32,000 nucleotides of DNA from an uncultured bacterium. GTDB lineage: Bacteria; Margulisbacteria; WOR-1; CAVSGV01. The notes under the pieces are model-generated. The model saw only the letters and a list, made by a program, of their open reading frames with translations. It was not told the origin of the DNA and did no database searches. Location: the NCBI GenBank assembly GCA_963699255.1, contig OY969425.1, forward strand, positions 1,230,001-1,262,000. The letters run 5' to 3'. Of the stretch, positions 11,063 through 30,633 are shown piece after piece; the first letter of the stretch is position 1, and the number at the start of each line of letters is the position of its first letter. Position numbers and translations under genes: made by a program.

Positions 11063-11063
11063 T

Positions 11064-12716: not shown

Positions 12717-12753
12717 TTATTACGCCTCCTATAAGTTGGATTAGTGGAAGTTT

Positions 12754-12781: not shown

Positions 12782-12846
12782 TGGGATTTTTAAGCTGTTT
12801 TATCGATATAACTATAGTAGGAGATCGGGAAATAAGAAATAATATT

Positions 12847-12946
12847 TGGAATTTTGGATTTGGGTCATTGGAATTTGTTTGGTAATTGGAAATTGGAAAT
12901 TGGTCATTCTTGCGTAGCAAGCGCTGGGTTGTTCGTGACTTGTTAA
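12847..12946. repeat. AT-rich simple-repeat element with a short GC hairpin (probable divergent relative of the 2267/4061 elements)
   Basis: GGAATTTTGGATTTGGGTCATTGGAATTTG...GGTAATTGGAAATTGGAAATTGGTCATT, then CTTGCgtaGCAAG (12909-12921). It shares the 11-mer TTGGGTCATTG with the reverse complement of 2267-2373. Confidence 0.45.
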
Positions 12947-13061
12947 AGATCTATAGACTATCTTCTCTGATTAAGTTCGGAGAATCCTTTTAGTACTATT
13001 TAACTTTAACTTGACGGCAACCCAGTTTTTTATTCTGTAAAGATATCTTATCACATATCCT

Positions 13062-13093: not shown

Positions 13094-13126
13094 GATTCAA
13101 ATGATTTTTCAACTCATCCCTTGTCC

Positions 13127-16100
13127 CTACTTAGCTTCCAGCTTATCCAGACGGGCTTTCAGCTCTTCATTGATCTTCTTCTGTTCATCGATCTGCCTTT
13201 GCTGCTCTTTTACCGCTTCAACAAGTATGGGTATTAACGTATCGGTATAAAGTGTGGTAGCATAAACTCTATCTTTTCCGTCCTTGCCTGTATAATGATT
13301 CTCGAGTTTTGTACTATCATCATATTTTACCGCTTCCGGCACTTGCTCTCCCACATCTTCGGCGATAAAACCAAGTGTATGCCCGCCGCCATGTTTTTCA
13401 TCCCAATCAAAAGAAACTCCTCTAAGGTTAAGTATCTTATCCAGGGCATCTTTTATTCCCACAACGTTCTTCTTCCATCTTATTGATGAACCTTTCCCGT
13501 AAGTACCGTGGACAGCATAAAAATCGCTACCTGGACTTTCAGCATATACACCATAAGCACTGCCGTAACCATAAGTACCAACATAGCCTACGCCATAGAC
13601 ACCCGCACTCCAGTTAGTATAGTCAGTATTCATACCGCTAACACCGCAGCCATTTGCCCCATGACCTATACCCAAGACACCGGTGCCCAATTTTCCGTTT
13701 TCGCCGATGATGGTTTCCGCTCCTTCGCGATAAGCATAGATGCAACGCCCGGTCTGATAAATGGCGGTTCCACTCCCGCTCAGCCCCGTTCCCATTACAG
13801 TTATTTGAGACTGCGGATTCGTCGTCCCGATACCGACATTGCCGTTATTATCAATGACCATTGATGTATTTGTAATACCAGTAGTGTAGTTATTTGAGGT
13901 TCCAAACATCAATTTTGAACCGCTATTATCAAAATAGGCAGCGATCCTGGCGTTTGGATTAGATCCAGAGCTGTACAGGAAATCTATAGGTGTATAACGT
14001 CCAGCGGTATAAGCACCGCTCAAAGAAAGCATACCTCTTGTTGCACCGGTAAATGTTGAAATTTGACTTCCTTCTACATTTAGTTTGGATGCCGGATTTG
14101 TCGTCCCGATGCCGACATTGCCGTTGTTTAGAATTGTTACTCTATCCGAATAATTATCTATATTGCCTTGCGAACTCAGTGTGCGCAAATAAAGATTACC
14201 GCCTGAAGAACCTCCCCAATCGATCACGCCGTTAGCAGAATTATAAACTAAATGGGTCCCGGAAAGCCGAACATTACCGGCAACATCTAATTTAGTTCCT
14301 GGACCAGTCGTACCGATGCCGACATTGCCGCCTGAAACAAACAAATCATTTGTGTCAACTTTTAAACCGCTTGAGTTCAAATAATACCCCGTGCCGGAAC
14401 ATGCGGTAGCTGTCGCTGATAAAATAGCATAATTTGCGCGTACAGAACACACGGTCGATGTTCCACTCAAATCTGCATAGTTAGCATCCCTCGCGTGACC
14501 CGTACATATGGAAGCTACCGATGATAATATTGCGTAATTTGCCTGCTTGGTACACAGGGTCGATATTCCACTAAGATCCGCATAGTTAGCATCTTTCGCA
14601 TGACCGGTACTGCAATCGCTGGCTGTCGCTGCTAATAATGCGTATGTCGCCTGCTTCGTACACATGGTCGATGTCCCGCTCAATGCCGCATAGTTAGCAT
14701 CTTTCGCATGGCCGGTACTGCAATCGCTGGCTGTCGCTGCTAATAATGCGTATGTCGCCTGCTTCGTACACATGGTCGATGTCCCGCTCAATGCCGCATA
14801 GCTCGCACTATTCGCACTGCCTGTACAGACACTCGATGTGCCTGATAAAGCTGCATATGGCGCTGATCCTGTACAGCTGGATGATGTTCCACTCAATGCC
14901 GCATAGCTCGCGCTATTCGCACTGCCTGTACATATACTTGATATCCCTGATAGGTTTGCATACTTGACTGATCCAGTACATGCCGATGATATCCCGCTAA
15001 GATCCGCGTACTTTACTGATCCTGTACAGGCACTGGATGTTCCTGATAACTCCGCATACTTTACAGATCCGGTACAGCTGGATGCTGTTCCACTCAATGC
15101 CGCATAGCTCGCGCTATTCGCGCTGCCCGTACATATACTTGATATCCCTGATAGTGTTGCATATATAGCATTAGTGCTCGTGGTCGATGTCCCGCTTAAT
15201 ACTGCGTAGCTGACGGTTCCTGTACACCTGGACGATGTTCCGCTTAGATCTGCATACTTTACAGAGCCGGTACAAGTGGATGCGGTTCCACTCAATACTG
15301 CATAATTAACAGTCCCTGTACATGTAGATGCGGTTCCACTCAATACTGCATAATTAACAGTCCCTGTACATGTAGATGCGGTTCCACTTAATACTGAATA
15401 GTTGGAAGTATTCGCGCTACCCGTACAAACACTCGATATCCCTGATAGTGTTGCATAGGAAACCGATCCAGTACAGCTGGATGATGTTCCACTCAATACC
15501 GCGTAGTTAACGGTCCCGGTACACATGGATGCTGTCCCGCTCAACACAGAGTAGTTGGAAGTATTCGCGCTACCCGTACAAACACTTGATGTCCCAGATA
15601 GATTTGCATAAATAGCATTAGTGCTGGTGGTAGATGTCCCGCTCAATACAGCGTAGTTGGATGTGTTCGCATTGCCTGTACAGACACTGGATGCCCCTGA
15701 CAGTGCCGCATAATTGGTTGATCCTGTACAGACAGATGCTGTTCCACTCAATGCTGCATAGTTGGATGTATTAGCGCTACCTGTACACACACTTGATGTC
15801 CCTGACAGTGCCGCATAATTGGTTGATCCGGTACAAATAGATGCTGTCCCGCTCAATGCTGCATAGTTCGCACTATTCGCACTGCCTGTACATACACTTG
15901 ATATCCCTGATAAATTTGCATACTTGGTTGATCCGGTACAAGTGGATGCGGTTCCACTCAATACTGCATAGTTAACAGTCCCGGTACAAGTAGATGCTGT
16001 TCCGCTCAACACAGAGTAGTTCGATGTATTAGCATTACCTGTGCATACACTTGATATACCTGATAGAGCTGCATAATTAGTTGATCCAGTACAGACAGAT

Positions 16101-18199
16101 GCTGTTCCACTCAATACCGCATAATTAACGGTCCCGGTACACATGGATGCGGTCCCACTTAATACTGAATAGTTGGAAGTATTCGCGCTACCCGTACAAA
16201 CACTTGATGTCCCAGATAGATTTGCATAAATAGCATTAGTGCTGGTGGTAGATGTCCCGCTCAATACCGCGTAATTGACGGTCCCTGTACACAGGGATGC
16301 GGTCCCGCTCAACACAGAGTAATTCGATGTATTCGCGTTGCCTGTGCATACACTGGATGTACCTGATAGCGCTGCATAAGTGACAGGCCCTGTACAACTG
16401 GATGCCGTTCCACTCAATACTGCATAGTTTGATGTATTCGCATTTCCTGTACACACACTTGATGTCCCTGACAGTGCCGCATAATTGGTTGATCCGGTAC
16501 AAATAGATGCTGTCCCGCTCAATGCTGCATAGTTCGCACTATTCGCACTGCCTGTACATACACTTGATATCCCTGATAAATTTGCATACTTGGTTGATCC
16601 GGTACAAGTGGATGCGGTTCCACTCAATACTGCATAGTTAACAGTCCCGGTACAAGTAGATGCTGTTCCGCTCAACACAGAGTAGTTCGATGTATTAGCA
16701 TTACCTGTGCATACACTTGATATACCTGATAGAGCTGCATAATTAGTTGATCCAGTACAGACAGATGCTGTTCCACTCAATACCGCATAATTAACGGTCC
16801 CGGTACACATGGATGCGGTCCCACTTAATACTGAATAGTTGGAAGTATTCGCGCTACCCGTACAAACACTTGATGTCCCAGATAGATTTGCATAAATAGC
16901 ATTAGTGCTGGTGGTCGACGTTCCACTCAATGCTGCATAGTTGGATGTATTCGCACTGCCTGTGCATACACTTGATATACCTGATAGTGCTGCATAATTG
17001 GTTGATCCGGTACAAATGGATGCTGTTCCACTCAATACAGCATAGTTGGATGTATTAGCGCTACCTGTACACACACTTGATGTCCCTGACAGTGCCGCAT
17101 AATTGGTTGATCCTGTACAGACAGATGCTGTTCCACTCAATGCTGCATACTTTACTGATCCCGTACAGACAGATGCTGTTCCGCTCAACACAGAGTAGTT
17201 CGATGTATTAGCATTACCTGTGCACACACTGGATATACCTGATAGAGCTGCATAATTAGTTGATCCGGTACAGCTTGATGCTGTTCCACTTAATGCTGCA
17301 TAGTTGGATGTACTCGCGCTACCTGTACATATACTGGATATACCTGATAGATTTGCATAAGTGACAGACCCTGTACAACTGGATGCTGTTCCACTCAATA
17401 CTGCATACTTTACTGATCCCGTACATGCGGATGATGTTCCGCTTAACACTGCATAGTTAACAGTCCCTGTACAGGCTGATGCTGTCCCACTCAATACCGC
17501 ATAGTTTGATGTATTCGCACTGCCTGTGCATACACTTGATATCCCCGATAAAGCTGCATACTTTACCGATCCCGTACACGCGGATGATGTTCCGCTCAAT
17601 GTCGCATAGTTCGCGGTTACTGATACTGATGTGGAGGTCACATTGATAAGCGCCGAGCCATCTCCGTAATATTTACCTGTCGACCCCTCTATGGATGCTC
17701 CCATAGCTCCCACCTTAAGATTCCCTGTTATATTGGCGTTTGCCGTCTGCGCTTCCGTTGTGTTCATGATGTACCTTAGATCCGCATCTCCCTCTGAGAT
17801 ACCTCCTCCGCCTCCACCCATCCCCGATTCTGATGATATCGCCCTGAACGCGTACGGTGCCGCCGCCAGCAGCTGGTGCGGCGTCATGTCTTCTCCCCCA
17901 ACGTTCAGCCCGATCTCATATTGATTGCTGAAATCTACGCTAGTGGGAATAGGACCCAGCATTTCATTGATGTTCCCCTGACTGTCAGGAGTAACCGTTG
18001 ATGTCTGCGACCACAGCGATGTCCCGCTGGATGAATCGTACAGCGTGAAGATTATCACCTTGGGGTCTGTGATAGGCAGGCCGCTTGTTTTGTCCAGTAA
18101 CCTACCTTGAAAATATATGGTGCGGGGGATAGCTGCAAGAACGGAGAAAGATAATATCGTCAGGAAAACAAAGAAAAAGAAAAACACCTTTTTTTGCAT
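13127..18199 (-). CDS. Giant secreted repeat protein A (1690 aa): conserved N-terminal module, about 63 single-Cys repeats, GNVGIGTT joints, C-terminal Peptidase_S74-like chaperone tip
   Basis: 5.07-kb uninterrupted ORF. GGAGG RBS. Sec-type signal peptide (MQKKVFFFFFVFLTILSFSVLA|A). The C-terminus SSIRWKKNVVGIKDALDKILNLRGVSFDW...GFIAEDVGEQVPEAV...coiled-coil matches the intramolecular-chaperone auto-processing domain of endosialidase/tail-fibre proteins. Confidence 0.88.
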   Translation of the reverse strand: MQKKVFFFFFVFLTILSFSVLAAIPRTIYFQGRLLDKTSGLPITDPKVIIFTLYDSSSGTSLWSQTSTVTPDSQGNINEMLGPIPTSVDFSNQYEIGLNVGGEDMTPHQLLAAAPYAFRAISSESGMGGGGGGISEGDADLRYIMNTTEAQTANANITGNLKVGAMGASIEGSTGKYYGDGSALINVTSTSVSVTANYATLSGTSSACTGSVKYAALSGISSVCTGSANTSNYAVLSGTASACTGTVNYAVLSGTSSACTGSVKYAVLSGTASSCTGSVTYANLSGISSICTGSASTSNYAALSGTASSCTGSTNYAALSGISSVCTGNANTSNYSVLSGTASVCTGSVKYAALSGTASVCTGSTNYAALSGTSSVCTGSANTSNYAVLSGTASICTGSTNYAALSGISSVCTGSANTSNYAALSGTSTTSTNAIYANLSGTSSVCTGSANTSNYSVLSGTASMCTGTVNYAVLSGTASVCTGSTNYAALSGISSVCTGNANTSNYSVLSGTASTCTGTVNYAVLSGTASTCTGSTKYANLSGISSVCTGSANSANYAALSGTASICTGSTNYAALSGTSSVCTGNANTSNYAVLSGTASSCTGPVTYAALSGTSSVCTGNANTSNYSVLSGTASLCTGTVNYAVLSGTSTTSTNAIYANLSGTSSVCTGSANTSNYSVLSGTASMCTGTVNYAVLSGTASVCTGSTNYAALSGISSVCTGNANTSNYSVLSGTASTCTGTVNYAVLSGTASTCTGSTKYANLSGISSVCTGSANSANYAALSGTASICTGSTNYAALSGTSSVCTGSANTSNYAALSGTASVCTGSTNYAALSGASSVCTGNANTSNYAVLSGTSTTSTNAIYANLSGTSSVCTGSANTSNYSVLSGTASMCTGTVNYAVLSGTSSSCTGSVSYATLSGISSVCTGSANTSNYSVLSGTASTCTGTVNYAVLSGTASTCTGTVNYAVLSGTASTCTGSVKYADLSGTSSRCTGTVSYAVLSGTSTTSTNAIYATLSGISSICTGSANSASYAALSGTASSCTGSVKYAELSGTSSACTGSVKYADLSGISSACTGSVKYANLSGISSICTGSANSASYAALSGTSSSCTGSAPYAALSGTSSVCTGSANSASYAALSGTSTMCTKQATYALLAATASDCSTGHAKDANYAALSGTSTMCTKQATYALLAATASDCSTGHAKDANYADLSGISTLCTKQANYAILSSVASICTGHARDANYADLSGTSTVCSVRANYAILSATATACSGTGYYLNSSGLKVDTNDLFVSGGNVGIGTTGPGTKLDVAGNVRLSGTHLVYNSANGVIDWGGSSGGNLYLRTLSSQGNIDNYSDRVTILNNGNVGIGTTNPASKLNVEGSQISTFTGATRGMLSLSGAYTAGRYTPIDFLYSSGSNPNARIAAYFDNSGSKLMFGTSNNYTTGITNTSMVIDNNGNVGIGTTNPQSQITVMGTGLSGSGTAIYQTGRCIYAYREGAETIIGENGKLGTGVLGIGHGANGCGVSGMNTDYTNWSAGVYGVGYVGTYGYGSAYGVYAESPGSDFYAVHGTYGKGSSIRWKKNVVGIKDALDKILNLRGVSFDWDEKHGGGHTLGFIAEDVGEQVPEAVKYDDSTKLENHYTGKDGKDRVYATTLYTDTLIPILVEAVKEQQRQIDEQKKINEELKARLDKLEAK
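13130..13489 (-). other. Peptidase_S74-like intramolecular chaperone (auto-processing) domain of giant A
   Basis: It shows the S-x-R-x-K-x-N...L..L..V.F.W...GFIA(E/Q).V....PE.V pattern, ending in a heptad-like DEQKKINEELKARLDKLEAK. Recognised from memory of the family; not verified by HMM. Confidence 0.7.
14387..17608 (-). repeat. In-frame tandem array of about 63 units of 48/57 nt (16/19 aa) in giant A
   Basis: Units counted by hand from the translation: YAxLSG[T/I]xSxCTG plus a 3-aa or 6-aa linker. Four Cys-less 15-aa units (YAVLSGTSTTSTNAI). Confidence 0.9.
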
Positions 18200-18260
18200 A
18201 ATAACCCTCCTGTGAATATCATGAATATCAATGGATTCCTTACTTGATCCCTAGCGGTAC

Positions 18261-18288
18261 ATTATATTATATAGGTGCGGAATTACAA
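18261..18288 (-). promoter_or_regulatory. Promoter copy 1 (giant A): TTGTAA-16-TATAAT
   Basis: Minus strand: -35 TTGTAA (18288-18283) and -10 TATAAT (18266-18261). The about 55-nt 5'UTR contains the tandem TGATATTCA x2 (18230-18213) and a GGAGG RBS. Near-identical copies lie upstream of giants B and C. Confidence 0.6.
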
Positions 18289-18361
18289 ATGACTAATTTC
18301 ATGCTTAAAGTATAACTGAAAAGATTTTCGCTAATTACCCCTGGACTAAATCCCTTTATAT

Positions 18362-19355
18362 TTACGGATTCCAAATATCGCTTGAAGAGGACCAGACATC
18401 GTGAAGATAACTCCCCCCCATTACCCACATCTTATTCTTATAAACAACTGAACCAAGGCCATCACGGGCTGCCCAGCCGGCGGCGGCAGTTGCCTGGGTC
18501 CATGTAATTCCGTCAGTAGAATACCAGACATCATTCCTCTCCCATTGTCCAACAACATTCCCGTATCCCCCCATCACCCACATTTTATTATCAAAGACCT
18601 GTGCGGTGTGCCACGCCCGTCCCGGCCAGTTGGCAGCAGCTGTTACCTGTCATCCAGGTAACGCCGTCTGAAGATGACCATACATCGTTCCGATAGCCGG
18701 TACTAAGCCCCCCATACCCACCTCCAAGCAGCCACATTTTATTGTTAAAGACCAATGATCTGCTCCCCTCACGGTTGTACCATTCAACAGAGGTTTCCGG
18801 TTTCCAAGTAACACCGTCCGTAGAGGACCAGACAGGATTAGTTTGGGCGGTTGAATGGTCCGTCATCATCCACATTTTATTATTAAAAACCAATACTGAA
18901 GGACCTTGCATTAGTCCCCAACCGGCAGCAGCTGTTACCTGTGTCCAGGTAACGCCGTCCGAAGAAGACCAGACATCGTTCAAAGCTTTCGTGTTAGAAT
19001 CATATCCTCCCAATACCCACATTTTGTTGTTAAAGACCACCGCAGCGAAGTTAGTTCGGGCTGTCCAACCGGCAGCAGCTGTTGCCTGTGTCCAGGTAAT
19101 GCCGTCTGAAGATGACCATACATCGCTCTTGTAGTTAGAACTACCAACACGCCCACCGATCACCCACATTTTATTGTTAAACACCAATGTGGAAAAACTT
19201 TCGCGGCCTGGCCAGCCGGCGGCAGAAGTTACCTGAGTCCAGGTGGATCCGGCTGCGGCAAATACCGTTCTTGCTACAAGAAGTTGGAAAAGAAAGAGCA
19301 AAAACAATATTAAGATGTGAGATGAGAAATGAGAGATGAGAGTGGGTTTTCGCAT
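18362..19355 (-). pseudogene. Secreted six-blade Kelch-type beta-propeller protein, interrupted by a 1-nt frameshift near 18651-18653
   Basis: ORFs 18591..19376 and 18362..18583 carry the same about 47-aa repeat (DVWSSSDG[VI]TWTQ.TAAAGW.....VFNNKMWV.GG). Intact blades read ...acctgtGTccagg, while blade 5 reads ...acctgtCATccagg (one extra nt). The likely start is the ATG at 19355 (GAGG RBS, signal peptide). This could be a real pseudogene or a sequencing error. Confidence 0.75.
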
Positions 19356-19384
19356 CCCATACCTCACACTTTGCATCTCTTGTT

Positions 19385-22300
19385 TTACTTTCCTTTCTTT
19401 TTATCTTGCACAGGAACCAGCGGAGGAATATCCGCGCGCACGGCTTCAACTCTCCAGTAGAATTTCTGGGAGGGGTTTCCGTCGGAGGTGGTGCTGACTG
19501 TAAATTTGCAGTTCTCGATCTTGCCTGCAACATAGAGCGGGGAATATCCGTCCACACAGGTCAGCTGGACAGTTCGCCCTTCTTTTCTGGTGAGGGCTTC
19601 AAAATATTCCGGCAGCTGTATTTCTTTCTTTGAACCGGACAGTTGGTCCTCACCCCGATAAAAGACCGCGTGTTCCGGACCCTCCAATGCGCCGTGAACT
19701 AATGTTTTGTTTTTCGGATCCAGCGGGTCAGGTATCTCAAAGTTCTTGTAGGTCGCGGCAAATCCGCCGGCAACCTGAAGCGTGTATTGTGGATTTGTCG
19801 TCCCGATGCCGACGTTGCCGCCTACAAAATAAGAATTACCGGAACGATTCAAAACAAATTTATCAACACCAGTTTGACCAATGGTAAGGCCACCTAGACC
19901 ATCGTAAACCATTTCATAATAGTTGGTGCCGCCATCAGTCAAACGAATACCATATCCGTAATTAGCTCCTGACCCGTTGACAGTTAGCTTCGCTCCCGGA
20001 CTCGTCGTCCCGATGGCCACGCGGCCGCTGTTGTAGTAAATATCACTTCCGCTCGTGCCCCATTGACCTGAAGGCCAAGAAGTTCTAGGAACCCCGCCAA
20101 GGGTAAGACCGTTTGTGTCAATTTTAACTGTGCCAGTGGTATTTGCACAGTTACTCGCAATTCTACACAGATCCGCATAGTTCGCGTCCCTCGCATGACC
20201 CGTACATGTGCTAGCTACCGATGATAATATTGCGTAATTTGCCTGCTTGGTACACAAGGTCGATATCCCGCTCAATACTGCATAGTTCGAGTCATTTGCA
20301 TGACCCGTACATGTGGTAGCTACTGATGATAATAACGCGTATGTTGCCTGCTTGGTACACAAGGTCGATATCCCGCTCAATACTGCATAGTTCGAGTCAT
20401 TTGCATGACCCGTACATGTGGTAGCTACTGATGATAATAACGCGTATGTTGCCTGCCTGGTACACATGGTAGATGTTCCACTCAGATCTGCATAGTTTGC
20501 ACTCTTAGCATTACCTGTACAGACACTTGATATCCCTGATAGGGCCGCATACGGTGCTGATCCTGTACATACAGATGCTATGCCACTCAACGCCGCATAG
20601 TTCGCACTCTTCGCACTACCTGTACAGACACTTGATATCCCTGATAGGGCCGCATACGGTGCTGATCCTGTACATACAGATGCTATGCCACTCAACGCCG
20701 CATAGTTCGCACTCGTCGCATTACCTGTACAGACACTTGATATCCCTGATAGGGCTGCATACGGCGCTGATCCACTACAGCTGGATGCTATTCCACTAAG
20801 ATTTGCATAGTTCGCACTCGTCGCATTACCTGTACAGACACTTGATATCCCTGATAGGGCTGCATACGGCGCTGATCCACTACAGCTGGATGCTATTCCA
20901 CTAAGATTTGCATAGTTCGCACTCTTCGCGCTACCCGTACAAATACTTGATATTCCTGACAGTGCTGCATACGGCGCTGATCCACTACAGCTGGAGGCTG
21001 TTCCACTCAATGCCGCATAGTTCGCGCTATTCGCGCTGCCTGTACATATACTTGATATCCCTGATAGTGTTGCATATATAGCATTAGTGCTCGTGGTCGA
21101 TGTCCCGCTCAATACTGCGTAGCTGACGGTTCCTGTACACCTGGACGATGTTCCGCTTAGATCTGCATACTTTACAGAGCCGGTACAAGTGGATGCGGTT
21201 CCACTCAATACTGCATAGTTAACAGTCCCGGTACAAGTAGATGCTGTTCCGCTTAACACTGCATAATTAACAGATCCCGTACAAGTGGATGCGGTCCCAC
21301 TTAATACTGAATAGTTGGAAGTATTCGCATTACCTGTACATACACTTGATATTCCTGATAGTGCTGCATACGGCGCTGATCCTGTACATATAGATGCTGT
21401 TCCACTCAATGCGGCATAGTTCGCACTATTCGCACTGCCTGTGCATACACTTGATGTCCCAGATAGATCCGCATACTTAGTCGATCCTGTGCAGACAGAT
21501 GCGGTCCCACTCAATACCGCATAATTGGATGTATTTGCACTACCTGTACAAATGCTTGATGTGCCTGATAGTGTTGCATACGGCGCTGATCCGGTACATA
21601 CAGATGCTGTTCCGCTCAATGCGGCATAGTTCGCACTATTCGCACTGCCTGTACAAATGCTTGATGTCCCTGATAGTGTTGCATAAACAGCATTAGTGCT
21701 GGTGGTCGATGTGCCACTCAATACTGCGTAGCCAGCTGTTTTAGCATTGCCTGAACATGTACTTGATATCCCAGACAGATCCGCATACTTAGTCGATCCT
21801 GTACAGACAGATGCGGTCCCACTTAATACTGAATAGTTGGAAGTATTCGCATTACCTGTACATACACTGGATGTCCCTGATAGTGCTGCATACTTGGTTG
21901 ATCCGGTACAGCTTGATGCTGTCCCGCTCAATACTGCATAGTTTGATGTATTCGCATTTCCTGTACAGACACTTGATGTCCCCGATAGATTTGCATAAAT
22001 AGCATTAGTGCTGGTGGTCGACGTCCCGCTCAATACCGCATAGTTGGATGTATTAGCATTACCTGTGCAGACACTTGATGTACCTGATAGTGTTGCATAA
22101 GGGACAGATCCTGTACATGTAGATGCTGTTCCACTCAATACCGCGTAATTGACGGTCCCTGTACACAGGGATGCGGTCCCGCTCAACACAGAGTAATTCG
22201 ATGTATTCGCGTTGCCTGTGCATACACTGGATGTACCTGATAGTGCTGCATACTTGGTTGATCCGGTACAGCTTGATGCTGTCCCGCTCAATACTGCATA

Positions 22301-24430
22301 GTTTGATGTATTCGCGCTACCCGTACAAACACTTGATGTCCCAGATAGTGTTGCATAAATAGCATTAGTGCTGGTGGTCGATGTACCACTCAATACTGCG
22401 TAGCCAGCTGTTTTAGCATTACCTGTGCAGACACTGGATGTCCCCGATAGATCCGCATACTTAGTCGATCCTGTACAGACAGATGCTGTTCCACTCAATA
22501 CTGCATAGTTAACAGTCCCGGTACACAGGGATGATGTCCCGCTCAACGCAGAGTAGTTTGATGTATTCGCATTTCCTGTACAGACACTTGATGTCCCTGA
22601 CAGTGCCGCATAATTGGTTGATCCCGTACAGACAGATGCTGTGCCGCTCAACACAGAGTAGTTCGATGTATTAGCATTACCTGTGCACACACTGGATATA
22701 CCTGATAGTGCTGCATAAATAGCATTAGTGCTGGTGGTCGATGTACCACTCAATACTGCGTAGCCAGCTGTTTTAGCATTACCTGTGCAGACACTGGATG
22801 TCCCCGATAGATCCGCATACTTAGTCGATCCTGTACATGTGGATGCTGTTCCACTCAATACTGCATAGTTAACAGTCCCGGTACACAGGGATGATGTCCC
22901 GCTCAACGCAGAGTAGTTTGATGTATTCGCATTTCCTGTACAGACACTTGATGTCCCTGACAGTGCCGCATAATTGGTTGATCCCGTACAGACAGATGCT
23001 GTGCCGCTCAACACAGAGTAGTTGGATGTATTAGCATTACCTGTGCACACACTGGATATACCTGATAGTGCTGCATAAATAGCATTAGTGCTGGTGGTCG
23101 ATGTCCCGCTCAATACCGCATAATTGACAGTCCCTGTACACAGGGATGCGGTCCCGCTCAACACAGAGTAATTCGATGTATTCGCACTGCCTGTGCATAC
23201 ACTGGATGTACCTGATAGTGTTGCATAAGGGACAGATCCTGTACAAATAGATGCTGTCCCACTCAACGCAGAGTAGTTTGATGTATTCGCATTTCCTGTA
23301 CAGACACTTGATATACCTGACAGTGCTGCATAATTGGTTGATCCGGTACAAATAGATGCTGTTCCACTCAATGCTGCATACTTTACTGATCCCGTACAGA
23401 CAGATGCTGTTCCGCTCAACACAGAGTAGTTCGATGTATTAGCATTACCTGTGCACACACTGGATATACCTGATAGAGCTGCATAATTAGTTGATCCGGT
23501 ACAGCTTGATGCTGTTCCACTTAATGCTGCATAGTTGGATGTACTCGCGCTACCTGTACATATACTGGATATACCTGATAGATTTGCATAAGTGACAGAC
23601 CCTGTACAACTGGATGCTGTTCCACTCAATACTGCATACTTTACTGATCCCGTACATGCGGATGATGTTCCGCTTAACACTGCATAGTTAACAGTCCCTG
23701 TACAGGCTGATGCTGTCCCACTCAATACCGCATAGTTTGATGTATTCGCACTGCCTGTGCATACACTTGATATCCCCGATAAAGCTGCATACTTTACCGA
23801 TCCCGTACACGCGGATGATGTTCCGCTCAATGTCGCATAGTTCGCGGTTACTGATACTGATGTGGAGGTCACATTGATAAGCGCCGAGCCATCTCCGTAA
23901 TATTTACCTGTCGACCCCTCTATGGATGCTCCCATAGCTCCCACCTTAAGATTCCCTGTTATATTGGCGTTTGCCGTTTGCGCTTCCGTTGTGTTCATGA
24001 TGTACCTTAGATCCGCATCTCCCTCTGAGATACCTCCTCCTCCTCCACCCATCCCCGATTCTGATGATATCGCCCTGAACGCGTACGGTGCCGCCGCCAG
24101 CAGCTGGTGCGGCGTCATGTCTTCTCCTCCAACGTTCAGCCCGATCTCATACTGATTGCTGAAATCTACGCTAGTGGGAATAGGACCCAGCATTTCATTG
24201 ATGTTCCCCTGACTGTCAGGAGTAACCGTTGATGTCTGCGACCACAGCGATGTCCCGCTGGATGAATCGTACAGCGTGAAGATTATCACCTTGGGGTCTG
24301 TGATAGGCAGGCCGCTTGTTTTGTCCAGTAACCTACCTTGAAAATATATGGTGCGGGGGATAGCTGCAAGAACGGAGAAAGATAATATCGTCAGGAAAAC
24401 AAAGAAAAAGAAAAACACCTTTTTTTGCAT
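19385..24430 (-). CDS. Giant secreted repeat protein B (1681 aa): same N-terminal module, about 72 single-Cys repeats, distinct C-terminal 'FEIPDPLDP...YFEAL' tip
   Basis: 5.05-kb uninterrupted ORF. The first about 359 aa are identical to giant A in the supplied translations. After the array come two GxVxIGTT joints and then a unique about 118-aa terminal domain. Confidence 0.88.
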   Translation of the reverse strand: MQKKVFFFFFVFLTILSFSVLAAIPRTIYFQGRLLDKTSGLPITDPKVIIFTLYDSSSGTSLWSQTSTVTPDSQGNINEMLGPIPTSVDFSNQYEIGLNVGGEDMTPHQLLAAAPYAFRAISSESGMGGGGGGISEGDADLRYIMNTTEAQTANANITGNLKVGAMGASIEGSTGKYYGDGSALINVTSTSVSVTANYATLSGTSSACTGSVKYAALSGISSVCTGSANTSNYAVLSGTASACTGTVNYAVLSGTSSACTGSVKYAVLSGTASSCTGSVTYANLSGISSICTGSASTSNYAALSGTASSCTGSTNYAALSGISSVCTGNANTSNYSVLSGTASVCTGSVKYAALSGTASICTGSTNYAALSGISSVCTGNANTSNYSALSGTASICTGSVPYATLSGTSSVCTGSANTSNYSVLSGTASLCTGTVNYAVLSGTSTTSTNAIYAALSGISSVCTGNANTSNYSVLSGTASVCTGSTNYAALSGTSSVCTGNANTSNYSALSGTSSLCTGTVNYAVLSGTASTCTGSTKYADLSGTSSVCTGNAKTAGYAVLSGTSTTSTNAIYAALSGISSVCTGNANTSNYSVLSGTASVCTGSTNYAALSGTSSVCTGNANTSNYSALSGTSSLCTGTVNYAVLSGTASVCTGSTKYADLSGTSSVCTGNAKTAGYAVLSGTSTTSTNAIYATLSGTSSVCTGSANTSNYAVLSGTASSCTGSTKYAALSGTSSVCTGNANTSNYSVLSGTASLCTGTVNYAVLSGTASTCTGSVPYATLSGTSSVCTGNANTSNYAVLSGTSTTSTNAIYANLSGTSSVCTGNANTSNYAVLSGTASSCTGSTKYAALSGTSSVCTGNANTSNYSVLSGTASVCTGSTKYADLSGISSTCSGNAKTAGYAVLSGTSTTSTNAVYATLSGTSSICTGSANSANYAALSGTASVCTGSAPYATLSGTSSICTGSANTSNYAVLSGTASVCTGSTKYADLSGTSSVCTGSANSANYAALSGTASICTGSAPYAALSGISSVCTGNANTSNYSVLSGTASTCTGSVNYAVLSGTASTCTGTVNYAVLSGTASTCTGSVKYADLSGTSSRCTGTVSYAVLSGTSTTSTNAIYATLSGISSICTGSANSANYAALSGTASSCSGSAPYAALSGISSICTGSAKSANYANLSGIASSCSGSAPYAALSGISSVCTGNATSANYANLSGIASSCSGSAPYAALSGISSVCTGNATSANYAALSGIASVCTGSAPYAALSGISSVCTGSAKSANYAALSGIASVCTGSAPYAALSGISSVCTGNAKSANYADLSGTSTMCTRQATYALLSSVATTCTGHANDSNYAVLSGISTLCTKQATYALLSSVATTCTGHANDSNYAVLSGISTLCTKQANYAILSSVASTCTGHARDANYADLCRIASNCANTTGTVKIDTNGLTLGGVPRTSWPSGQWGTSGSDIYYNSGRVAIGTTSPGAKLTVNGSGANYGYGIRLTDGGTNYYEMVYDGLGGLTIGQTGVDKFVLNRSGNSYFVGGNVGIGTTNPQYTLQVAGGFAATYKNFEIPDPLDPKNKTLVHGALEGPEHAVFYRGEDQLSGSKKEIQLPEYFEALTRKEGRTVQLTCVDGYSPLYVAGKIENCKFTVSTTSDGNPSQKFYWRVEAVRADIPPLVPVQDKKKGK
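19388..19741 (-). other. C-terminal tip domain of giant B (uncharacterised family; FEIPDPLDPKNKTLVHGALEGPEHAVFYRG...LPEYFEAL...)
   Basis: I recall the F-x-I-x-[HD]-P-L-D-P...E-[GS]-P...Y-[RN]-G...LP-[DE]-YFEAL pattern from the C-termini of fibre-like hypothetical proteins in other bacteria. No named family can be assigned without an HMM search. Confidence 0.45.
20132..23839 (-). repeat. In-frame tandem array of about 72 units (16/19 aa) in giant B
   Basis: Same unit consensus. Six Cys-less units. Contains 360-bp, 105-bp and 108-bp higher-order tandem duplications. Confidence 0.9.
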
Positions 24431-24491
24431 AATAACCCTCCTGTGAATATCATGAATATCAATGGATTCCTTACTTGATCCCTAGCGGTAC

Positions 24492-24519
24492 ATTATATTA
24501 TATATATGTGGAATTACAA
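24492..24519 (-). promoter_or_regulatory. Promoter copy 2 (giant B): TTGTAA-16-TATAAT
   Basis: -35 at 24519-24514 and -10 at 24497-24492. The 5'UTR direct repeat is at 24444-24461. Homology with copy 3 extends upstream to about 24553. Confidence 0.6.
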
Positions 24520-24750
24520 TAGACTTTTGGCTCAAAGAAAATAATAAAAACTGTGGGGAAATAATGGTAACCTAGAAGGTTATACATGTCACTAACACAA
24601 TAATAACGATAGGGGGAAATGATTTATTGCTGATGCTATCACTTTTCCCCATGATCTACCATCAAATATCAGTTAAACAGCCACCGCCAGAATGTGTGAG
24701 AGCTATCGCAAGGTATAAGGTGTGTTGACTATGATCCTTATCCCTTGGTT

Positions 24751-24814
24751 CTATTTCGCCTCCAGCTTATCCAGACGGGCTTTCAGCTCTTCATTAACCG
24801 TCTTCTGTTCATCA
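24751..24814 (-). pseudogene. Relic of an S74-type gene 3' end (encodes ...DEQKTVNEELKARLDKLEAK*), stranded downstream of giant C
   Basis: CTATTTCGCCTCCAGCTTATCCAGACGGGCTTTCAGCTCTTCATTAACCGTCTTCTGTTCATC aligns with 13127-13190, the last 20 codons plus stop of giant A. It lies 30 nt beyond the giant C stop codon. Confidence 0.85.
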
Positions 24815-24843
24815 CAAGCAATTCAATTAAATTCTGAAATTCA

Positions 24844-27800
24844 CTAATATTCCACAAGCACAAATCCTTGCGTGCCATTGCCGGCATTATGTTGATAGCC
24901 GCCGGAACCGCCGCCACCGTAGCCATAGGCAGCAGTAACGCTACCATCCTCAAAGTAGAAGCCGCCACCACCAAAAGCGCTTCCGCCGCCTCTACTTGTA
25001 TTTGCGCCGCAAGTATCCTGTCCTCTCCCGCCATTAACGCCGCCGGTACAGTTAGTGCATGTGCCACCATTACCGCCATGGCCACCGTTGCCGCCGGTAT
25101 AGCCGGAGTAGCCAGCGCTACCGCCACCAGCCACATAACTCCCAAAAGATGAATCACCGCCGGGATTCCCCCACTCAGTAGCGCCAAGTTGACCGCCGGT
25201 GCCACCCTGGCCAACACCTACCGAAATACTTGCTCCGGGAGTTACACTCACACTTTCTGCTATAACAGCGGCCCCGCCGCCGCCACCGCCACCGTAATAG
25301 TTGCGGCCTGTGCCGCCGCCACCACCACCACCGCACATTGTAACCCATACTGTTTTCACTCCACTGGGTACAGTGAATGTTCCGCCAGATATGAAACGCT
25401 GTTTGCCGTGTGAAGAAATAAGTGTGCCATTATTATAGATTCCACCTGATGCATTTATCGCTCCGCCCTGAACATCTACTTTATATCCTGGATTCGTCGT
25501 CCCGATTCCGACATTGCCAACAGAATCTATGACCATTGATGTATTTGTAATACCAGTAGTGTAGTTATTTGAGGTTCCAAACATCAATTTTGAACCGCTA
25601 TTATCAAAATAGGCAGCGATCCTGGCGTTTGGATTAGATCCAGAGCTGTACAGGAAATCTATAGGTGTATAACGTCCAGCGGTATAAGCACCGCTCAAAG
25701 AAAGCATACCTCTTGTTGCACCGGTAAATGTTGAAATTTGACTTCCTTCTACATTTAGTTTGGATGCCGGATTTGTCGTCCCGATGCCGACATTGCCGTT
25801 GTTTAGAATTGTTACTCTATCCGAATAATTATCTATATTGCCTTGCGAACTCAGTGTGCGCAAATAAAGATTACCACCTGAAGAACCTCCCCAATCGATC
25901 ACGCCGTTAGCAGAATTATAAACTAAATGGGTCCCGGAAAGCCGAACATTACCGGCAACATCTAATTTAGTTCCTGGACCAGTCGTACCGATGCCGACAT
26001 TGCCGCCTGAAACAAACAAATCATTTGTGTCAACTTTTAAACCGCTTGAGTTCAAATAATACCCGGTGCCGGAACATGCGGTAGCTGTCGCTGATAAAAT
26101 AGCATAATTTGCGCGTACAGAACACACTGTCGATGTTCCACTCAAATCTGCATAGTTAGCATCCCTCGCGTGACCCGTACATATGGAAGCTACCGATGAT
26201 AATATTGCGTAATTTGCCTGCTTGGTACACAGGGTCGATGTCCCGCTCAATGCCGCATAGTTAGCATCTTTCGCATGACCGGTACTGCAATCGCTGGCTG
26301 TCGCTGCTAATAATGCGTATGTCGCCTGCTTCGTACACATGGTCGATGTCCCGCTCAATGCCGCATAACTCGCACTATTCGCACTGCCTGTACAGACACT
26401 CGATGTGCCTGATAAAGCTGCATATGGCGCTGATCCTGTACAGCTGGATGATGTTCCACTCAATGCCGCATAGCTCGCGCTATTCGCACTGCCTGTACAT
26501 ATACTTGATATCCCTGATAGGTTTGCATACTTGACTGATCCAGTACATGCCGATGATATCCCGCTAAGATCCGCGTACTTTACTGATCCTGTACAGGCAC
26601 TGGATGTTCCTGATAACTCCGCATACTTTACAGATCCGGTACAGGCGGATGATGTTCCACTCAATGCCGCATAGCTCGCGCTGTTCGCACTGCCTGTACA
26701 TATACTTGATATCCCTGATAGTGTTGCATATATAGCATTAGTGCTCGTGGTCGATGTCCCGCTTAATACTGCGTAGCTGACGGATCCTGTACACCTGGAC
26801 GATGTTCCGCTTAATGTCGAATAAGAAACAGCCCCAGTACAGCTGGATGATGTTCCACTCAATACTGCATAGTTAACAGTCCCGGTACAAGTAGATGCTG
26901 TTCCGCTTAACACTGAATAATTAACAGATCCCGTACAAGTGGATGCGGTCCCACTTAATACTGAATAGTTGGAAGTATTCGCGCTACCCGTACAAACACT
27001 TGATATCCCTGATAGTGTTGCATAGGAAACCGATCCAGTACATGTGGATGCTGTTCCACTCAATACCGCATAATTAACGGTCCCGGTACACATGGATGCT
27101 GTCCCGCTCAACACAGAGTAGTTGGAAGTATTCGCGCTACCCGTACAAATGCTTGATGTCCCTGATAGTGTTGCATATATAGAATTAGTGCTGGTGGTCG
27201 ATGTCCCGCTTAATACCGCATAGTTAACAGTCCCTGTACACATGGATGCTGTTCCACTTAACACTGCATAGTTGGCACTATTCGCACTGCCTGTACAAAT
27301 GCTTGATGTCCCTGATAGTGTTGCATAAACAGCATTAGTGCTGGTGGTCGATGTGCCACTCAATACTGCGTAGCCAGCTGTTTTAGCATTGCCTGAACAT
27401 GTACTTGATATCCCAGACAGATCCGCATACTTAGTCGATCCTGTGCAGACAGATGCGGTCCCACTCAATACCGCATAATTGGATGTATTTGCACTACCTG
27501 TACAAATGCTTGATGTGCCTGATAGTGTTGCATAAATAGAATTAGTGCTGGAGGTTGATGTCCCGCTCAATACCGCATAGTTAACAGTCCCTGTACACAT
27601 GGATGCTGTTCCGCTTAACACTGAATAATTAACAGATCCCGTACAAGTGGATGCTGTCCCACTCAACACAGAGTAGTTGGATGTATTAGCGCTACCTGTA
27701 CAGACGCTTGATATACCTGATAGTGCTGCATAATTGGTTGATCCGGTACAGACAGATGCTGTTCCACTCAATGCTGCATAGTTGGATGTATTAGCGCTGC

Positions 27801-29400
27801 CTGTGCATACACTTGATATCCCTGATAAATTTGCATACTTGGTTGATCCGGTACAAACAGATGCGCTCCCACTCAATACCGCATAATTGGAAGTATTCGC
27901 ATTGCCTGTACACACACTTGATATACCTGATAGTGCTGCATAATTGGTTGATCCGGTACAGCTTGATGCTGTCCCACTCAACGCAGAGTAGTTGGATGTA
28001 TTAGCGCTGCCTGTGCACACACTTGATATCCCTGATAAATTTGCATACTTGGTTGATCCGGTACAAATAGATGCTGTTCCACTCAATGCTGCATAGTTGA
28101 CGGTCCCGGTACATATAGATGCTGTCCCACTCAACACAGAGTAGTTCGATGTATTAGCGCTGCCTGTGCATACACTTGATATACCTGATAAAGCTGCATA
28201 ATTGGTTGATCCGGTACAAATGGATGCTGTTCCACTCAATGTGGCATAGTTCGCACTATTCGCACTGCCTGTGCACACACTTGATGTCCCTGACAGTGCC
28301 GCATAATTGGTTGATCCGGTACAAATAGATGCTGTTCCACTCAATGCTGCATACTTTACTGATCCCGTACAGACAGATGCTGTTCCGCTCAACACAGAGT
28401 AGTTCGATGTATTAGCATTACCTGTGCACACACTGGATATACCTGATAGAGCTGCATAATTAGTTGATCCGGTACAGCTTGATGCTGTTCCACTTAATGC
28501 TGCATAGTTGGATGTACTCGCGCTACCTGTACATATACTGGATATACCTGATAGATTTGCATAAGTGACAGACCCTGTACAACTGGATGCTGTTCCACTC
28601 AATACTGCATACTTTACTGATCCCGTACATGCGGATGATGTTCCGCTTAACACTGCATAGTTAACAGTCCCTGTACAGGCTGATGCTGTCCCACTCAATA
28701 CCGCATAGTTTGATGTATTCGCACTGCCTGTGCATACACTTGATATCCCCGATAAAGCTGCATACTTTACCGATCCCGTACACGCGGATGATGTTCCGCT
28801 CAATGTCGCATAGTTCGCGGTTACTGATACTGATGTGGAGGTCACATTGATAAGCGCCGAGCCATCTCCGTAATATTTACCTGTCGACCCCTCTATGGAT
28901 GCTCCCATAGCTCCCACCTTAAGATTCCCTGTTATATTGGCGTTTGCCGTCTGCGCTTCCGTTGTGTTCATGATGTACCTTTGGTCCGCATTCCCTTGGG
29001 CGATACCTCCTCCTCCTCCCATCCCCGATTCTGATGATATCGCCCTGAACGCGTACGGTGCCGCCGCCAGCAGCTGGTGCGGCGTCATGTCTTCTCCCCC
29101 AACGTTCAGCCCGATCTCATATTGATTGCTGAAATCTACGCTCGTGGGAATGGGACCCAGCATTTCATTGATGTTCCCCTGACTGTCAGGAGTAACCGTT
29201 GATGTCTGCGACCACAGCGATGTCCCGCTGGATGAATCGTACAGCGTGAAGATTATCACCTTGGGGTCTGTGATAGGCAGGCCGCTTGTTTTGTCCAGTA
29301 ACCTACCTTGAAAATATATGGTGCGGGGGATAGCTGCAAGAACGGAGAAAGATAATATCGTCAGGAAAACAAAGAAAAAGAAAAACACCTTTTTTTGCAT
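24844..29400 (-). CDS. Giant secreted repeat protein C (1518 aa): same N-terminal module, about 54 single-Cys repeats, same pre-tip region as A, glycine-rich tail-fibre-type tip
   Basis: 4.56-kb uninterrupted ORF. The N-terminus is identical to A and B except for a short patch (GMGGGGGIAQGNADQRY). The C-terminus RFISGGTFTVPSGVKTVWVTMCGGGGGGG...VSVTPGASISVGVGQGG...GFVLVEY matches the glycine-rich domain seen at phage tail-fibre C-termini. Confidence 0.88.
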   Translation of the reverse strand: MQKKVFFFFFVFLTILSFSVLAAIPRTIYFQGRLLDKTSGLPITDPKVIIFTLYDSSSGTSLWSQTSTVTPDSQGNINEMLGPIPTSVDFSNQYEIGLNVGGEDMTPHQLLAAAPYAFRAISSESGMGGGGGIAQGNADQRYIMNTTEAQTANANITGNLKVGAMGASIEGSTGKYYGDGSALINVTSTSVSVTANYATLSGTSSACTGSVKYAALSGISSVCTGSANTSNYAVLSGTASACTGTVNYAVLSGTSSACTGSVKYAVLSGTASSCTGSVTYANLSGISSICTGSASTSNYAALSGTASSCTGSTNYAALSGISSVCTGNANTSNYSVLSGTASVCTGSVKYAALSGTASICTGSTNYAALSGTSSVCTGSANSANYATLSGTASICTGSTNYAALSGISSVCTGSANTSNYSVLSGTASICTGTVNYAALSGTASICTGSTKYANLSGISSVCTGSANTSNYSALSGTASSCTGSTNYAALSGISSVCTGNANTSNYAVLSGSASVCTGSTKYANLSGISSVCTGSANTSNYAALSGTASVCTGSTNYAALSGISSVCTGSANTSNYSVLSGTASTCTGSVNYSVLSGTASMCTGTVNYAVLSGTSTSSTNSIYATLSGTSSICTGSANTSNYAVLSGTASVCTGSTKYADLSGISSTCSGNAKTAGYAVLSGTSTTSTNAVYATLSGTSSICTGSANSANYAVLSGTASMCTGTVNYAVLSGTSTTSTNSIYATLSGTSSICTGSANTSNYSVLSGTASMCTGTVNYAVLSGTASTCTGSVSYATLSGISSVCTGSANTSNYSVLSGTASTCTGSVNYSVLSGTASTCTGTVNYAVLSGTSSSCTGAVSYSTLSGTSSRCTGSVSYAVLSGTSTTSTNAIYATLSGISSICTGSANSASYAALSGTSSACTGSVKYAELSGTSSACTGSVKYADLSGISSACTGSVKYANLSGISSICTGSANSASYAALSGTSSSCTGSAPYAALSGTSSVCTGSANSASYAALSGTSTMCTKQATYALLAATASDCSTGHAKDANYAALSGTSTLCTKQANYAILSSVASICTGHARDANYADLSGTSTVCSVRANYAILSATATACSGTGYYLNSSGLKVDTNDLFVSGGNVGIGTTGPGTKLDVAGNVRLSGTHLVYNSANGVIDWGGSSGGNLYLRTLSSQGNIDNYSDRVTILNNGNVGIGTTNPASKLNVEGSQISTFTGATRGMLSLSGAYTAGRYTPIDFLYSSGSNPNARIAAYFDNSGSKLMFGTSNNYTTGITNTSMVIDSVGNVGIGTTNPGYKVDVQGGAINASGGIYNNGTLISSHGKQRFISGGTFTVPSGVKTVWVTMCGGGGGGGTGRNYYGGGGGGGAAVIAESVSVTPGASISVGVGQGGTGGQLGATEWGNPGGDSSFGSYVAGGGSAGYSGYTGGNGGHGGNGGTCTNCTGGVNGGRGQDTCGANTSRGGGSAFGGGGFYFEDGSVTAAYGYGGGGSGGYQHNAGNGTQGFVLVEY
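24847..25398 (-). other. Glycine-rich C-terminal tip domain of giant C
   Basis: G-x-F-T-V-P-x-G-V...V-x-x-x-G-G-G-G-G-G...V-T-P-G...V-G-x-G-G pattern, recognised from memory of 'glycine-rich domain-containing' tail-fibre proteins. Not verified by HMM. Confidence 0.6.
26061..28812 (-). repeat. In-frame tandem array of about 54 units (16/19 aa) in giant C
   Basis: Same unit consensus. Four Cys-less units (STSSTNSI / STTSTNAV / STTSTNSI / STTSTNAI variants). Confidence 0.9.
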
Positions 29401-29461
29401 AATAACCCCCTGTGAATATCATGAATATCAATGGATTCCTTACTTGATCCCTATGCGGTAC

Positions 29462-29489
29462 ATTATATTATATATATGTGGAATTACAA
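29462..29489 (-). promoter_or_regulatory. Promoter copy 3 (giant C): TTGTAA-16-TATAAT
   Basis: -35 at 29489-29484 and -10 at 29467-29462. The 5'UTR direct repeat is at 29413-29430. The RBS variant is GGGGG rather than GGAGGG. Confidence 0.6.
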
Positions 29490-29570
29490 TAGACTTTTGG
29501 CTCAAAGAAAATAATAAAAACTGTGGGGGGAAAATAAGGAAGAAGATGTCTTTGCTTGTCATAAACAAAA

Positions 29571-29607
29571 AATAATGGCGCGGCCATCTGCTTGCCGCGC
29601 CATTATT
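29571..29607 (-). terminator. Rho-independent terminator after the PorV-like gene
   Basis: Perfect 13-bp stem AATAATGGCGCGG / CCGCGCCATTATT with an 11-nt loop. On the minus strand the GC core is followed by AUUAUUUUUUGUUU. Confidence 0.8.
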
Positions 29608-29625
29608 TCGCCAATTAATTTGGCC

Positions 29626-30633
29626 TTATATTATTTCCGATGCCTGTTTTACCGGCTCCTCAGGACCGCCCGTGTAACAGATCGAGAAATAATGCGTTGA
29701 TAGCTCAGAAAAATTAGGATCCTGCCTGTACGCGTAATCGAACCTGAACCCGTCCAGCGTAAGGCCTATGCCAAGCAGATAATTCGTTGATGTCCCTGTG
29801 GTCCCCTCGTCGATCGACGCCGCTTTCTGGTCGATCCCGGCCCTCAGCGCGAGAAGTGGTATTACCTGCCATTCGGCTCCGCCGTGTGCCACCATATCCC
29901 TTCCTCCGTCCAGGTCGAAGTCCGTGTCCAGCGCGACCAGCACATTTTCAATAGCTTTATATGAACATCCCAGCTTGAACAGCCTGGGAAGCGTTTCTTT
30001 CTCCCCGGTGGACCAATCAAGCGATCCAGCCACATTTTGAAGTGTGGCTCCAACGGTCAACCTGCTGGTCGGTGCATACATCGCCCCAAGGTCCAGCTCC
30101 ATTCCGCTTGCGGTCGGTGCATTGCTTATGCTCCCCGAAAGCCCCTGTGAAAGAAACTTTACGTTAGCCCCTACCCCGACTTGCTCGCTGATATCTTTAC
30201 CATATGAGAGGATGAACATCTGGTTCGTATAATCCATTGCTCCGCCTTCGGTTGTTACTCCCCCTACATAATATATATGTGAGCCTGCCGGTGTTGATGC
30301 CCCAACATATCCGATCCCTAAATGACCGTATTGCGTCGGATATGAAAATCCGATCAGCTTGTAGTCTACGGTGTTCAATATCTGTGAACTCATGCTTACA
30401 AAAGAGAGGCTGTTCTGCCTGGCAAGCCCTGCCGGATTCGTGAATATGGCCGATGCGTCATCAGCAAGGCCCGTGTATGCTCCCCCAAGCGCTATCGGGC
30501 GCGCTCCCATCCCTACTTCTGTTATGTCTACCGAGGGTGCGTTGACTGAGCCGTCATCAGCAAAGGATGCGGATATCATCAATATTACCAATGATACCGC
30601 TAAAAATGTTAACTTTAGAACCGTATTCCTCAT
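29626..30633 (-). CDS. Outer-membrane beta-barrel protein, PorV/PorQ-like (FadL-fold) family
   Basis: The start is taken at the ATG at 30633 (GGGGGGAG RBS; signal peptide MRNTVLKLTFLAVSLVILMISASFA). VGMGARPIALGGAYTGLADDASAIFTNPAGLA matches the conserved N-terminal motif of PorV/PorQ and UPF0164-type barrels. Alternating beta-strand pattern and a C-terminal aromatic-rich end. Confidence 0.55.
   Translation of the reverse strand: MRNTVLKLTFLAVSLVILMISASFADDGSVNAPSVDITEVGMGARPIALGGAYTGLADDASAIFTNPAGLARQNSLSFVSMSSQILNTVDYKLIGFSYPTQYGHLGIGYVGASTPAGSHIYYVGGVTTEGGAMDYTNQMFILSYGKDISEQVGVGANVKFLSQGLSGSISNAPTASGMELDLGAMYAPTSRLTVGATLQNVAGSLDWSTGEKETLPRLFKLGCSYKAIENVLVALDTDFDLDGGRDMVAHGGAEWQVIPLLALRAGIDQKAASIDEGTTGTSTNYLLGIGLTLDGFRFDYAYRQDPNFSELSTHYFSICYTGGPEEPVKQASEII

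Follow-up and report, generated by a model that had tools for sequence, protein, structure and literature searches.

In bacteria, duplicated genes such as tufA and tufB undergo concerted evolution, and Rhs and CdiA loci carry displaced "orphan" C-terminal tips, with toxin tips accompanied by cognate immunity genes; in phages, the tips of tail fibers and receptor-binding proteins are exchanged as modules at conserved linkers. RecA-dependent intragenomic gene conversion has been described among Helicobacter pylori babA/babB/babC, sabA/sabB/hopQ, and homA/homB, where it yields chimeric genes and segmental concerted evolution (PMC3960876, PMC2795765). Host-recognition modules recombine in phages (PMC10579305), and duplicated rRNA operons evolve in concert by conversion (PMC6002687). 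Here we analyze three giant tandem genes, designated A, B, and C, in a 32,000-nt window of the genome of an uncultivated bacterium (contig OY969425.1, positions 1,230,001-1,262,000, forward strand; assembly GCA_963699255.1). Positions are those of the window unless given as genome positions, and all features of the three genes are on the minus strand. We read the locus as a probable case of segmental concerted evolution by gene conversion, combined with tail-fiber-style tip exchange and an Rhs-like remnant.

To judge from their sequences, A, B, and C are separately promoted paralogues predicted to encode exported, tail-fiber-like surface fibers, which combine a shared base with a Cys-repeat stalk whose length varies and with differing tips. 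The three open reading frames (ORFs) are intact over 4.6 to 5.1 kb. Each product has an identical signal-peptide start, followed by an N-domain of ~195 aa, the stalk, GNVGIGTT joints, and a gene-specific tip; stalk units are short (15, 16, 19, or 20 aa) and follow the pattern YAxLSGTSSxCTG.... According to ORF translation and unit parsing, gene A (13127-18199; 1690 aa) has 63 Cys-containing stalk units, three GNVGIGTT joints, and a Peptidase_S74 tail-fiber tip (PF13884, 46.4 bits against a cutoff of 22, residues 1571-1625), which PHROG tail-fiber families also match. Only gene A among the three has an S74 domain above the Pfam cutoff; membership is by sequence match, self-cleavage and trimerization being predictions. 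Gene B (19385-24430; 1681 aa) shares this base but has 72 stalk units and a tip of its own, for which the only matches are PHROG families of unknown function (phrog_28536, E = 1.6e-16). Gene C (24844-29400; 1518 aa) again has the same base, with 54 stalk units and a glycine-rich tail-fiber-type tip (phrog_863, E = 1e-25; weak match to the Pam3 cyanophage fiber 7yfw, E = 0.0045). Two further, more distant paralogues, one of which we call D, lie elsewhere in the genome.

A, B, and C resemble the H. pylori adhesins as expressed surface paralogues in which some segments are homogenized and others divergent, with chimeras of the kind made by homologous recombination and no dedicated recombinase. 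Unlike the dispersed H. pylori adhesin genes, they are arranged in tandem and are built from 54 to 72 short units; their homogenized part is the 5' end with its promoter-like site, rather than a 3' segment as in bab and hom; and they are fiber-like with phage-type tips, whereas the H. pylori proteins are β-barrel outer-membrane proteins. In addition, conversion in A, B, and C is read from the sequence pattern. We consider it likely that recurrent RecA-type gene conversion among the three genes, together with unequal crossing-over and tip swapping at a conserved joint, produced the pattern described below.

The shared blocks stand out by their sharp edges and DNA identities of 98.5 to 100%. An earlier note on this DNA had claimed three copies of a 5' block of ~1.16 kb; k-mer diagonals and seed extension, used for all our block maps, confirmed it (megablast/blastn self-comparison under-reports such blocks: its hits run into lower-identity repeats and are then filtered). 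The block, ~1.15 kb, begins at the −35 hexamer of a promoter-like site (TTGTAA-16-TATAAT) and takes in the 5' untranslated region (UTR), Shine-Dalgarno sequence, N-domain, and first nine stalk units (codons 1-359). Its copies lie at 17123-18288 in A, 23354-24558 in B, and 28274-29528 in C, the last matching the other two; A-C identity runs on to 17070, and B-C identity runs on to 23328. A 17123-18288 and B 23354-24519 have 7 mismatches in 1166 nt, 4 of them in a 1151-nt core, and a run of 624 nt (A 17123-17746) is without any difference across all three genes. Upstream, B and C share another 39 nt (to 24558 and 29528) missing from A, an extension that had been put at ~35 bp. The borders are specific to each pair: the 3' ends are staggered (nt 1077 for A-B, nt 1103 for B-C, and nt 1130 for A-C), and the 5' ends also differ (−88 for A, −132 for B and C).

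The claim that differences within the 5' block are few and mostly synonymous stands for A and B but not for C, which carries a divergent patch of 41 nt (28982-29020, codons 128-141) with eight substitutions, a 3-nt deletion, and four amino acid changes, as well as two 1-nt indels of its own in the shared 5' UTR (~29409 and ~29454). With the patch set aside, every coding difference in the block (up to nt 1077) is at a third codon position and synonymous. No donor for the patch was found across the genome, and a related metagenome contig that serves as our outgroup (Ga0209777_10052926) shows the A/B state there; either the patch is old sequence that conversion passed over, or it came in from another strain. 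One of the two 5' UTR indels drops an A from the Shine-Dalgarno sequence of C (AGGAGGG to AGGGGG), which may lower its translation.

A second large block, at the 3' end, is shared by A and C only (A 13854-15246, C 25529-26813) and, as the earlier note had it, is broken by a 108-bp indel. Its two parts are A 13854-14564 = C 25529-26239 (711 nt, 99.6%) and A 14666-15246 = C 26233-26813 (581 nt, 98.5%); the indel proved to be a tandem duplication of two units in A (14578-14693 versus 14686-14801, 99.1%). An A-B block said to span ~210 bp measures 221 nt (A 15084-15304 = B 20997-21217, 98.6%) and lies ~30 nt from the coordinates claimed for it; every block listed in that note was recovered within this distance of where it had been placed. 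We also found blocks beyond those, 110 to 199 nt long and 97 to 100% identical, some on different diagonals. They join B to C (B 21633-21823 = C 27275-27465, 99.5%; B 21465-21580 = C 27419-27534, 100%; B 21198-21328 = C 26852-26982, 99.2%), A to B (A 16260-16369 = B 22134-22243, 100%), and A to C (A 15384-15582 = C 26951-27149, 97%). The first two of these B-C blocks, within B 21465-21823, lie on different diagonals, which indicates that unit order has been rearranged. Duplications within single genes accompany the shared blocks: in A, 470 nt at 100% with a period of 666 nt, or 13 units (15780-16915), and in B (20239-23104), repeats with periods of 360 nt (22352-23104, 99.6 to 100%) and 105 nt (20239-20456 and 20512-20924, 98.6 to 100%).

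The closest pair of genes switches along the stalk. In a stretch of 570 gap-free nt (A 14958-15528, B 20871-21441, C 26525-27095), it changes from A=C to B=C, A=B, A=B=C, and again A=C, amounting to four topology switches; no single tree fits this three-way mosaic. The corresponding odd-one-out order is B, A, C, none, B, in 22 runs, whereas permutations gave 67 on average and never fewer than 49 (p = 5e-5). The A part of the mosaic includes the A-B block at 15084-15304, and the B part includes 20997-21217 (shared with A) as well as 21198-21328 and 20999-21159 (both shared with C); the C part is their alignment partner.

Identity along the genes is far from uniform, as expected from the reading put forward in the earlier note: in 100-column sliding windows of the three-way alignment it falls from 100% to 62 to 90% inside the arrays. 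We also let every 75- or 99-nt segment take its best match from any position in the other genes. Most array segments then scored 84 to 94%, a distinct second peak stood at ≥99%, and values between the two were sparse but continuous, so the arrays are not recently reshuffled copies of a single array. The longest exact runs (624, 655, and 650 nt) far exceed the permutation maximum of 59 to 113 nt (5000 column permutations, p ≤ 2e-4), and 31 of the 72 exact repeats of ≥80 nt in the whole 1.77-Mb genome fall in this locus.

Synonymous divergence (dS) along the same gene pair varies 30- to 100-fold. For A versus B, dS is 0.006 to 0.02 across the 5' block, rises to 0.68 at the stalk cap, and reaches 1.64 behind the stalk; across all blocks it is 0 to 0.045, compared with 0.53 to 0.68 for B versus A and C in the positionally homologous stalk cap. 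The N-domain differs from that of the distant paralogue D by a dS of 1.8, so this domain is free to diverge rather than intrinsically frozen. We rejected selection on mRNA or protein as the cause of the identity: protein-level selection cannot hold synonymous sites identical over 1.1 kb, and the N-domain diverges in D. The intergenic spacers are unrelated, that between A and B holding a Kelch-repeat gene and that between B and C the tip relic described next; recent unequal crossing-over of whole units is thus not the cause, and conversion-type, non-crossover tracts fit better.

Thirty nucleotides behind the stop codon of C lies the relic of an S74 tip (24737-24813). It is identical to A 13113-13189 at 67 of 77 positions and covers the last 20 codons, the stop codon, and the 14 following nt, which argues that C formerly had an S74 tip. 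Its divergence from A (10/77, 13%) contrasts with that of the adjoining A-C block (3/711, 0.4%; 3/176 at synonymous sites; Fisher p = 1e-8 and 5e-4, respectively); thus, A and C split long before their shared blocks took on the identity now seen. A-C identity ends ~10 nt ahead of the third GNVGIGTTNP joint of A (13815-13853; C counterpart at ~25490-25528), the proposed point of tip exchange: its 29-nt motif is conserved at 28 of 29 positions, and past it the tips are unrelated. No donor for the glycine-rich tip of C was found in the genome.

This arrangement recalls both phage fibers and Rhs/CdiA loci. Like phage fibers, the products have a base-stalk-tip organization, with an S74 chaperone tip and a Pam3-type glycine-rich tip, and the tip border falls at a short conserved motif; unlike phage fibers, they are encoded on the chromosome among housekeeping genes, and the exchange is among paralogues of one genome. 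As in Rhs and CdiA loci, gene C has a new C-terminal module at a conserved junction with a remnant of the old tip downstream; in contrast to those loci, the remnant is only 77 nt, the tips match fiber families rather than toxins, and an immunity gene is absent: apart from the Kelch gene after B, the tips have no small ORF behind them.

The age of the relic bears on a simpler history made up of a few one-off events, in which A and C arose by a young whole-gene duplication, a single 5' graft was placed onto an old B, the tip of C was replaced, and the arrays slipped fast. Consistent with it, A and C share their 5' and 3' blocks at a dS of 0 to 0.035, the arrays clearly duplicate internally, and the tip replacement in C is a single event. 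We nonetheless regard this history as unlikely: the old tip of C is 13% from that of A, so the A/C split predates the blocks; the middle arrays of A and C are only 84 to 93% identical even at their best position; B resembles A in some tracts and C in others, and these lie on different diagonals; the blocks do not end at the same points in the different pairs; and the tracts differ in age, from 0 to ~7% divergence. Any graft would, moreover, itself be an exchange between paralogues. The claim in the earlier note that the patchwork reflects gene conversion or unequal crossing-over, not simple old duplication, is supported by the dS heterogeneity, the topology switches, the S74 relic, and the unrelated spacers.

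We propose that recurrent conversion would proceed as follows. Direct repeats would pair out of register, on sister chromosomes or within one chromosome, and RecA-dependent strand invasion would then copy tens to ~1200 nt of one paralogue into another while the flanks stay in place, i.e., gene conversion. Within the arrays, unequal crossing-over or slippage would duplicate or delete blocks of 2, 7, or 13 units. Concerted evolution would thereby hold promoter, 5' UTR, signal peptide, N-domain, and first nine units near-identical, and the stalks would drift in length and in the order of their units. Tips would be replaced by rare illegitimate or short-homology exchange at the conserved 29-nt GNVGIGTTNP joint, as in C, whose S74 tip may have given way to the glycine-rich one. 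Genes for homologous recombination and repair are present, encoding RecA (446.6 bits), MutS, and MutL. The spread of tract ages and the zero-difference tracts suggest that exchange is ongoing; current activity, like the enzymology and the direction of transfer, is something that we infer from these patterns. A possible, if speculative, pay-off is that a single base would suit a single anchor or export partner and leave the tips free to vary.

Several points weigh against recurrent conversion. The evidence is one genome sequence rather than reads or populations. High identity of A and C at both ends means that part of the pattern could be one young duplication. A single assembly is what ties each 5' block to its array, and the nearest relatives are too distant (N-domain, ≤42%; one partial contig, 76%) for the giant genes to be clustered by genome versus position.

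Surface-exposed proteins with variable tips, bordered by a short conserved joint motif, also bring to mind programmed variation: silent-cassette antigenic variation, a site-specific shufflon, or a diversity-generating retroelement. Each variant runs against a feature of the locus. Instead of silent cassettes, A, B, and C are all complete ORFs with the same promoter-like site, Shine-Dalgarno sequence, start codon, and signal peptide. Against a shufflon, all of the A/B/C blocks are direct repeats. Pfam and NCBIfam scans of the window's ORFs of ≥150 aa (minus two overlapping annotated genes on the opposite strand) revealed no recombinase, no reverse transcriptase domain such as a retroelement would supply, and no phage gene other than the fiber-like genes themselves. 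Array block borders are not at one fixed site, either. Programmed variation of any of these kinds is hardly credible here.

Recurrent exchange, our preferred explanation, would also account for a neighboring gene. Directly upstream of the giant genes are a PorV/PorQ-family gene and a gene encoding a small protein with a type IX secretion system (T9SS)-type C-terminal domain (CTD). The PorV/PorQ-family gene and 96 nt upstream of it (29622-30765, minus strand) are 100% identical over 1144 nt to genome positions 203100-204243, where genome-wide self-comparison placed a second copy, in inverted orientation next to paralogue D and at a distance of 1.06 Mb. The copies have 0 differences at 252 synonymous sites, where ~115 would be expected, which argues for recent homogenization of dispersed copies. 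The CTD genes directly beside the two PorV copies are 78.6% identical, with a dS of 0.70, and are about as far from the outgroup contig (0.73 and 0.84) as from each other; dS between PorV and that contig is 0.87. On these synonymous counts, the PorV pair reads as an unambiguous case of recent homogenization in which paralogues are closer than orthologues, and the process proposed for the giant genes may have homogenized it as well. Like rRNA operons and tufA/tufB, the pair consists of dispersed copies held identical; unlike them, it encodes a nonessential surface or export component, and neighbors from the same old duplication escaped homogenization. The identical inverted copies are a possible substrate for a large inversion. 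GC skew does not bear on whether one took place, since its polarity would be kept if the inverted segment spanned the terminus.

The outgroup contig has 76% amino acid identity and conserved gene order in comparison with window positions 29008-31688 and genome positions 201618-204198. In a single row it carries the 3' end of a D-like giant gene, the CTD gene, the PorV gene, and the 5' end of an A/B/C-like giant gene, an order split into two loci in the present genome, which suggests that these two loci descend from one ancestral arrangement. For the giant genes, comparison of paralogues with orthologues extends only to codon ~145, where the contig stops, and to the one copy that it shows. Another metagenome contig that we considered was unrelated or chimeric. 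More widely, the N-domain occurs in 28 of the 41 genomes of our search among relatives (this genome counted), at ≤42% identity. For the 5' 360 residues, a search for homologues yielded just two proteins, both distant, the better at 47% identity and on a contig without a tandem triplet, and an exact-sequence look-up of the three giant proteins in a protein collection gave no entries.

In a highly repetitive locus from a probably uncultivated source, collapsed, chimerically joined, or multimapping-homogenized repeats could produce false identity during assembly or polishing. We judge such an artifact very unlikely. The genome assembled into one 1.77-Mb contig free of N, all three giant ORFs are uninterrupted, and private single-base differences are kept inside the blocks. 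Three independently assembled short-read contigs of run ERR10755942, the only other sample that exact-protein look-ups reached, reproduce 10706-13030 and 30736-32000 exactly and 18244-20242 with one single-nucleotide polymorphism. Two of their ends, one at the A 5' block and one at the PorV block, lie exactly 30 nt (k − 1, k = 31) past the block border on its inner side, where a de Bruijn graph would break at true repeats. These contigs support the block borders and give partial support to the assembly, with long-range linkage outside their reach.

The one polymorphism, a G/A difference at 19478, is in the tip of gene B; the run holds a slightly different consensus. The contig bearing ilvD ends at 13030, 97 nt downstream of the gene A stop codon, where all 31-mers are unique in the genome; missing coverage, or a variant in the population immediately downstream of gene A, could explain this end.

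Downstream of the giant genes, the ilv operon is followed by further genes of housekeeping type. The genome probably belongs to the Margulisiibacteriota, and the ilvD of a distant relative is 64% identical to the one here. Between A and B, the Kelch-repeat gene (18591-19355, minus strand; Pfam Kelch_1) is unique. Its ORF spans 18591-19376, with a first ATG just 8 nt past the gene B stop codon, and translation probably starts at the second ATG (19355), which has GAGG upstream and gives 254 aa; an independent gene call on another contig is an exact match to this 254-aa product. Right after the second PorV copy, a 164-aa ORF (genome 204263-204757) encodes a signal peptide and, of the CTD protein, nothing but its C-terminal sorting-type domain, and looks like a truncated third CTD copy. 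Elsewhere in the genome, other fiber-like repeat genes form further hot spots of exact repeats of ≥80 nt, at ~822 to 826 kb (20 segments at ~820 to 840 kb) and at ~280 to 297 kb (5 segments at ~280 to 300 kb). Two more inverted repeats, at genome 1054069-1055360 and 1093516-1094807 (1292 nt, 100%) and at 868557-869475 and 886132-887051 (921 nt, 99.1%), have longest open frames of ~100 codons, and Rfam gave no match to them.

A more ambitious interpretation, which we offer tentatively and think doubtful, is that the locus is a diversification device. The 5' block and the GNVGIGTTNP joint would act as recombination handles with which populations reshuffle stalks and swap or import tips, bases would be kept matched to the homogenized PorV-like partner, and chimeras and copy-number variants would segregate. 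Import of tips from outside is suggested by the glycine-rich tip of C, which has no donor in the genome.

Conversion is familiar from many surface-protein families of bacteria; the present locus, from an uncultivated lineage, shows its traces with unusual clarity. The giant fiber genes should not be taken for independent lineages, and trees or dates taken from their 5' ends would mislead. The locus and the PorV pair are also places where short-read assemblies break or collapse, and long-read population data could catch recombination there. A homogenized base, variable stalks, and exchangeable phage-type tips point to a modular surface-fiber system, whose variability could matter for attachment and for escape from phages or grazers.

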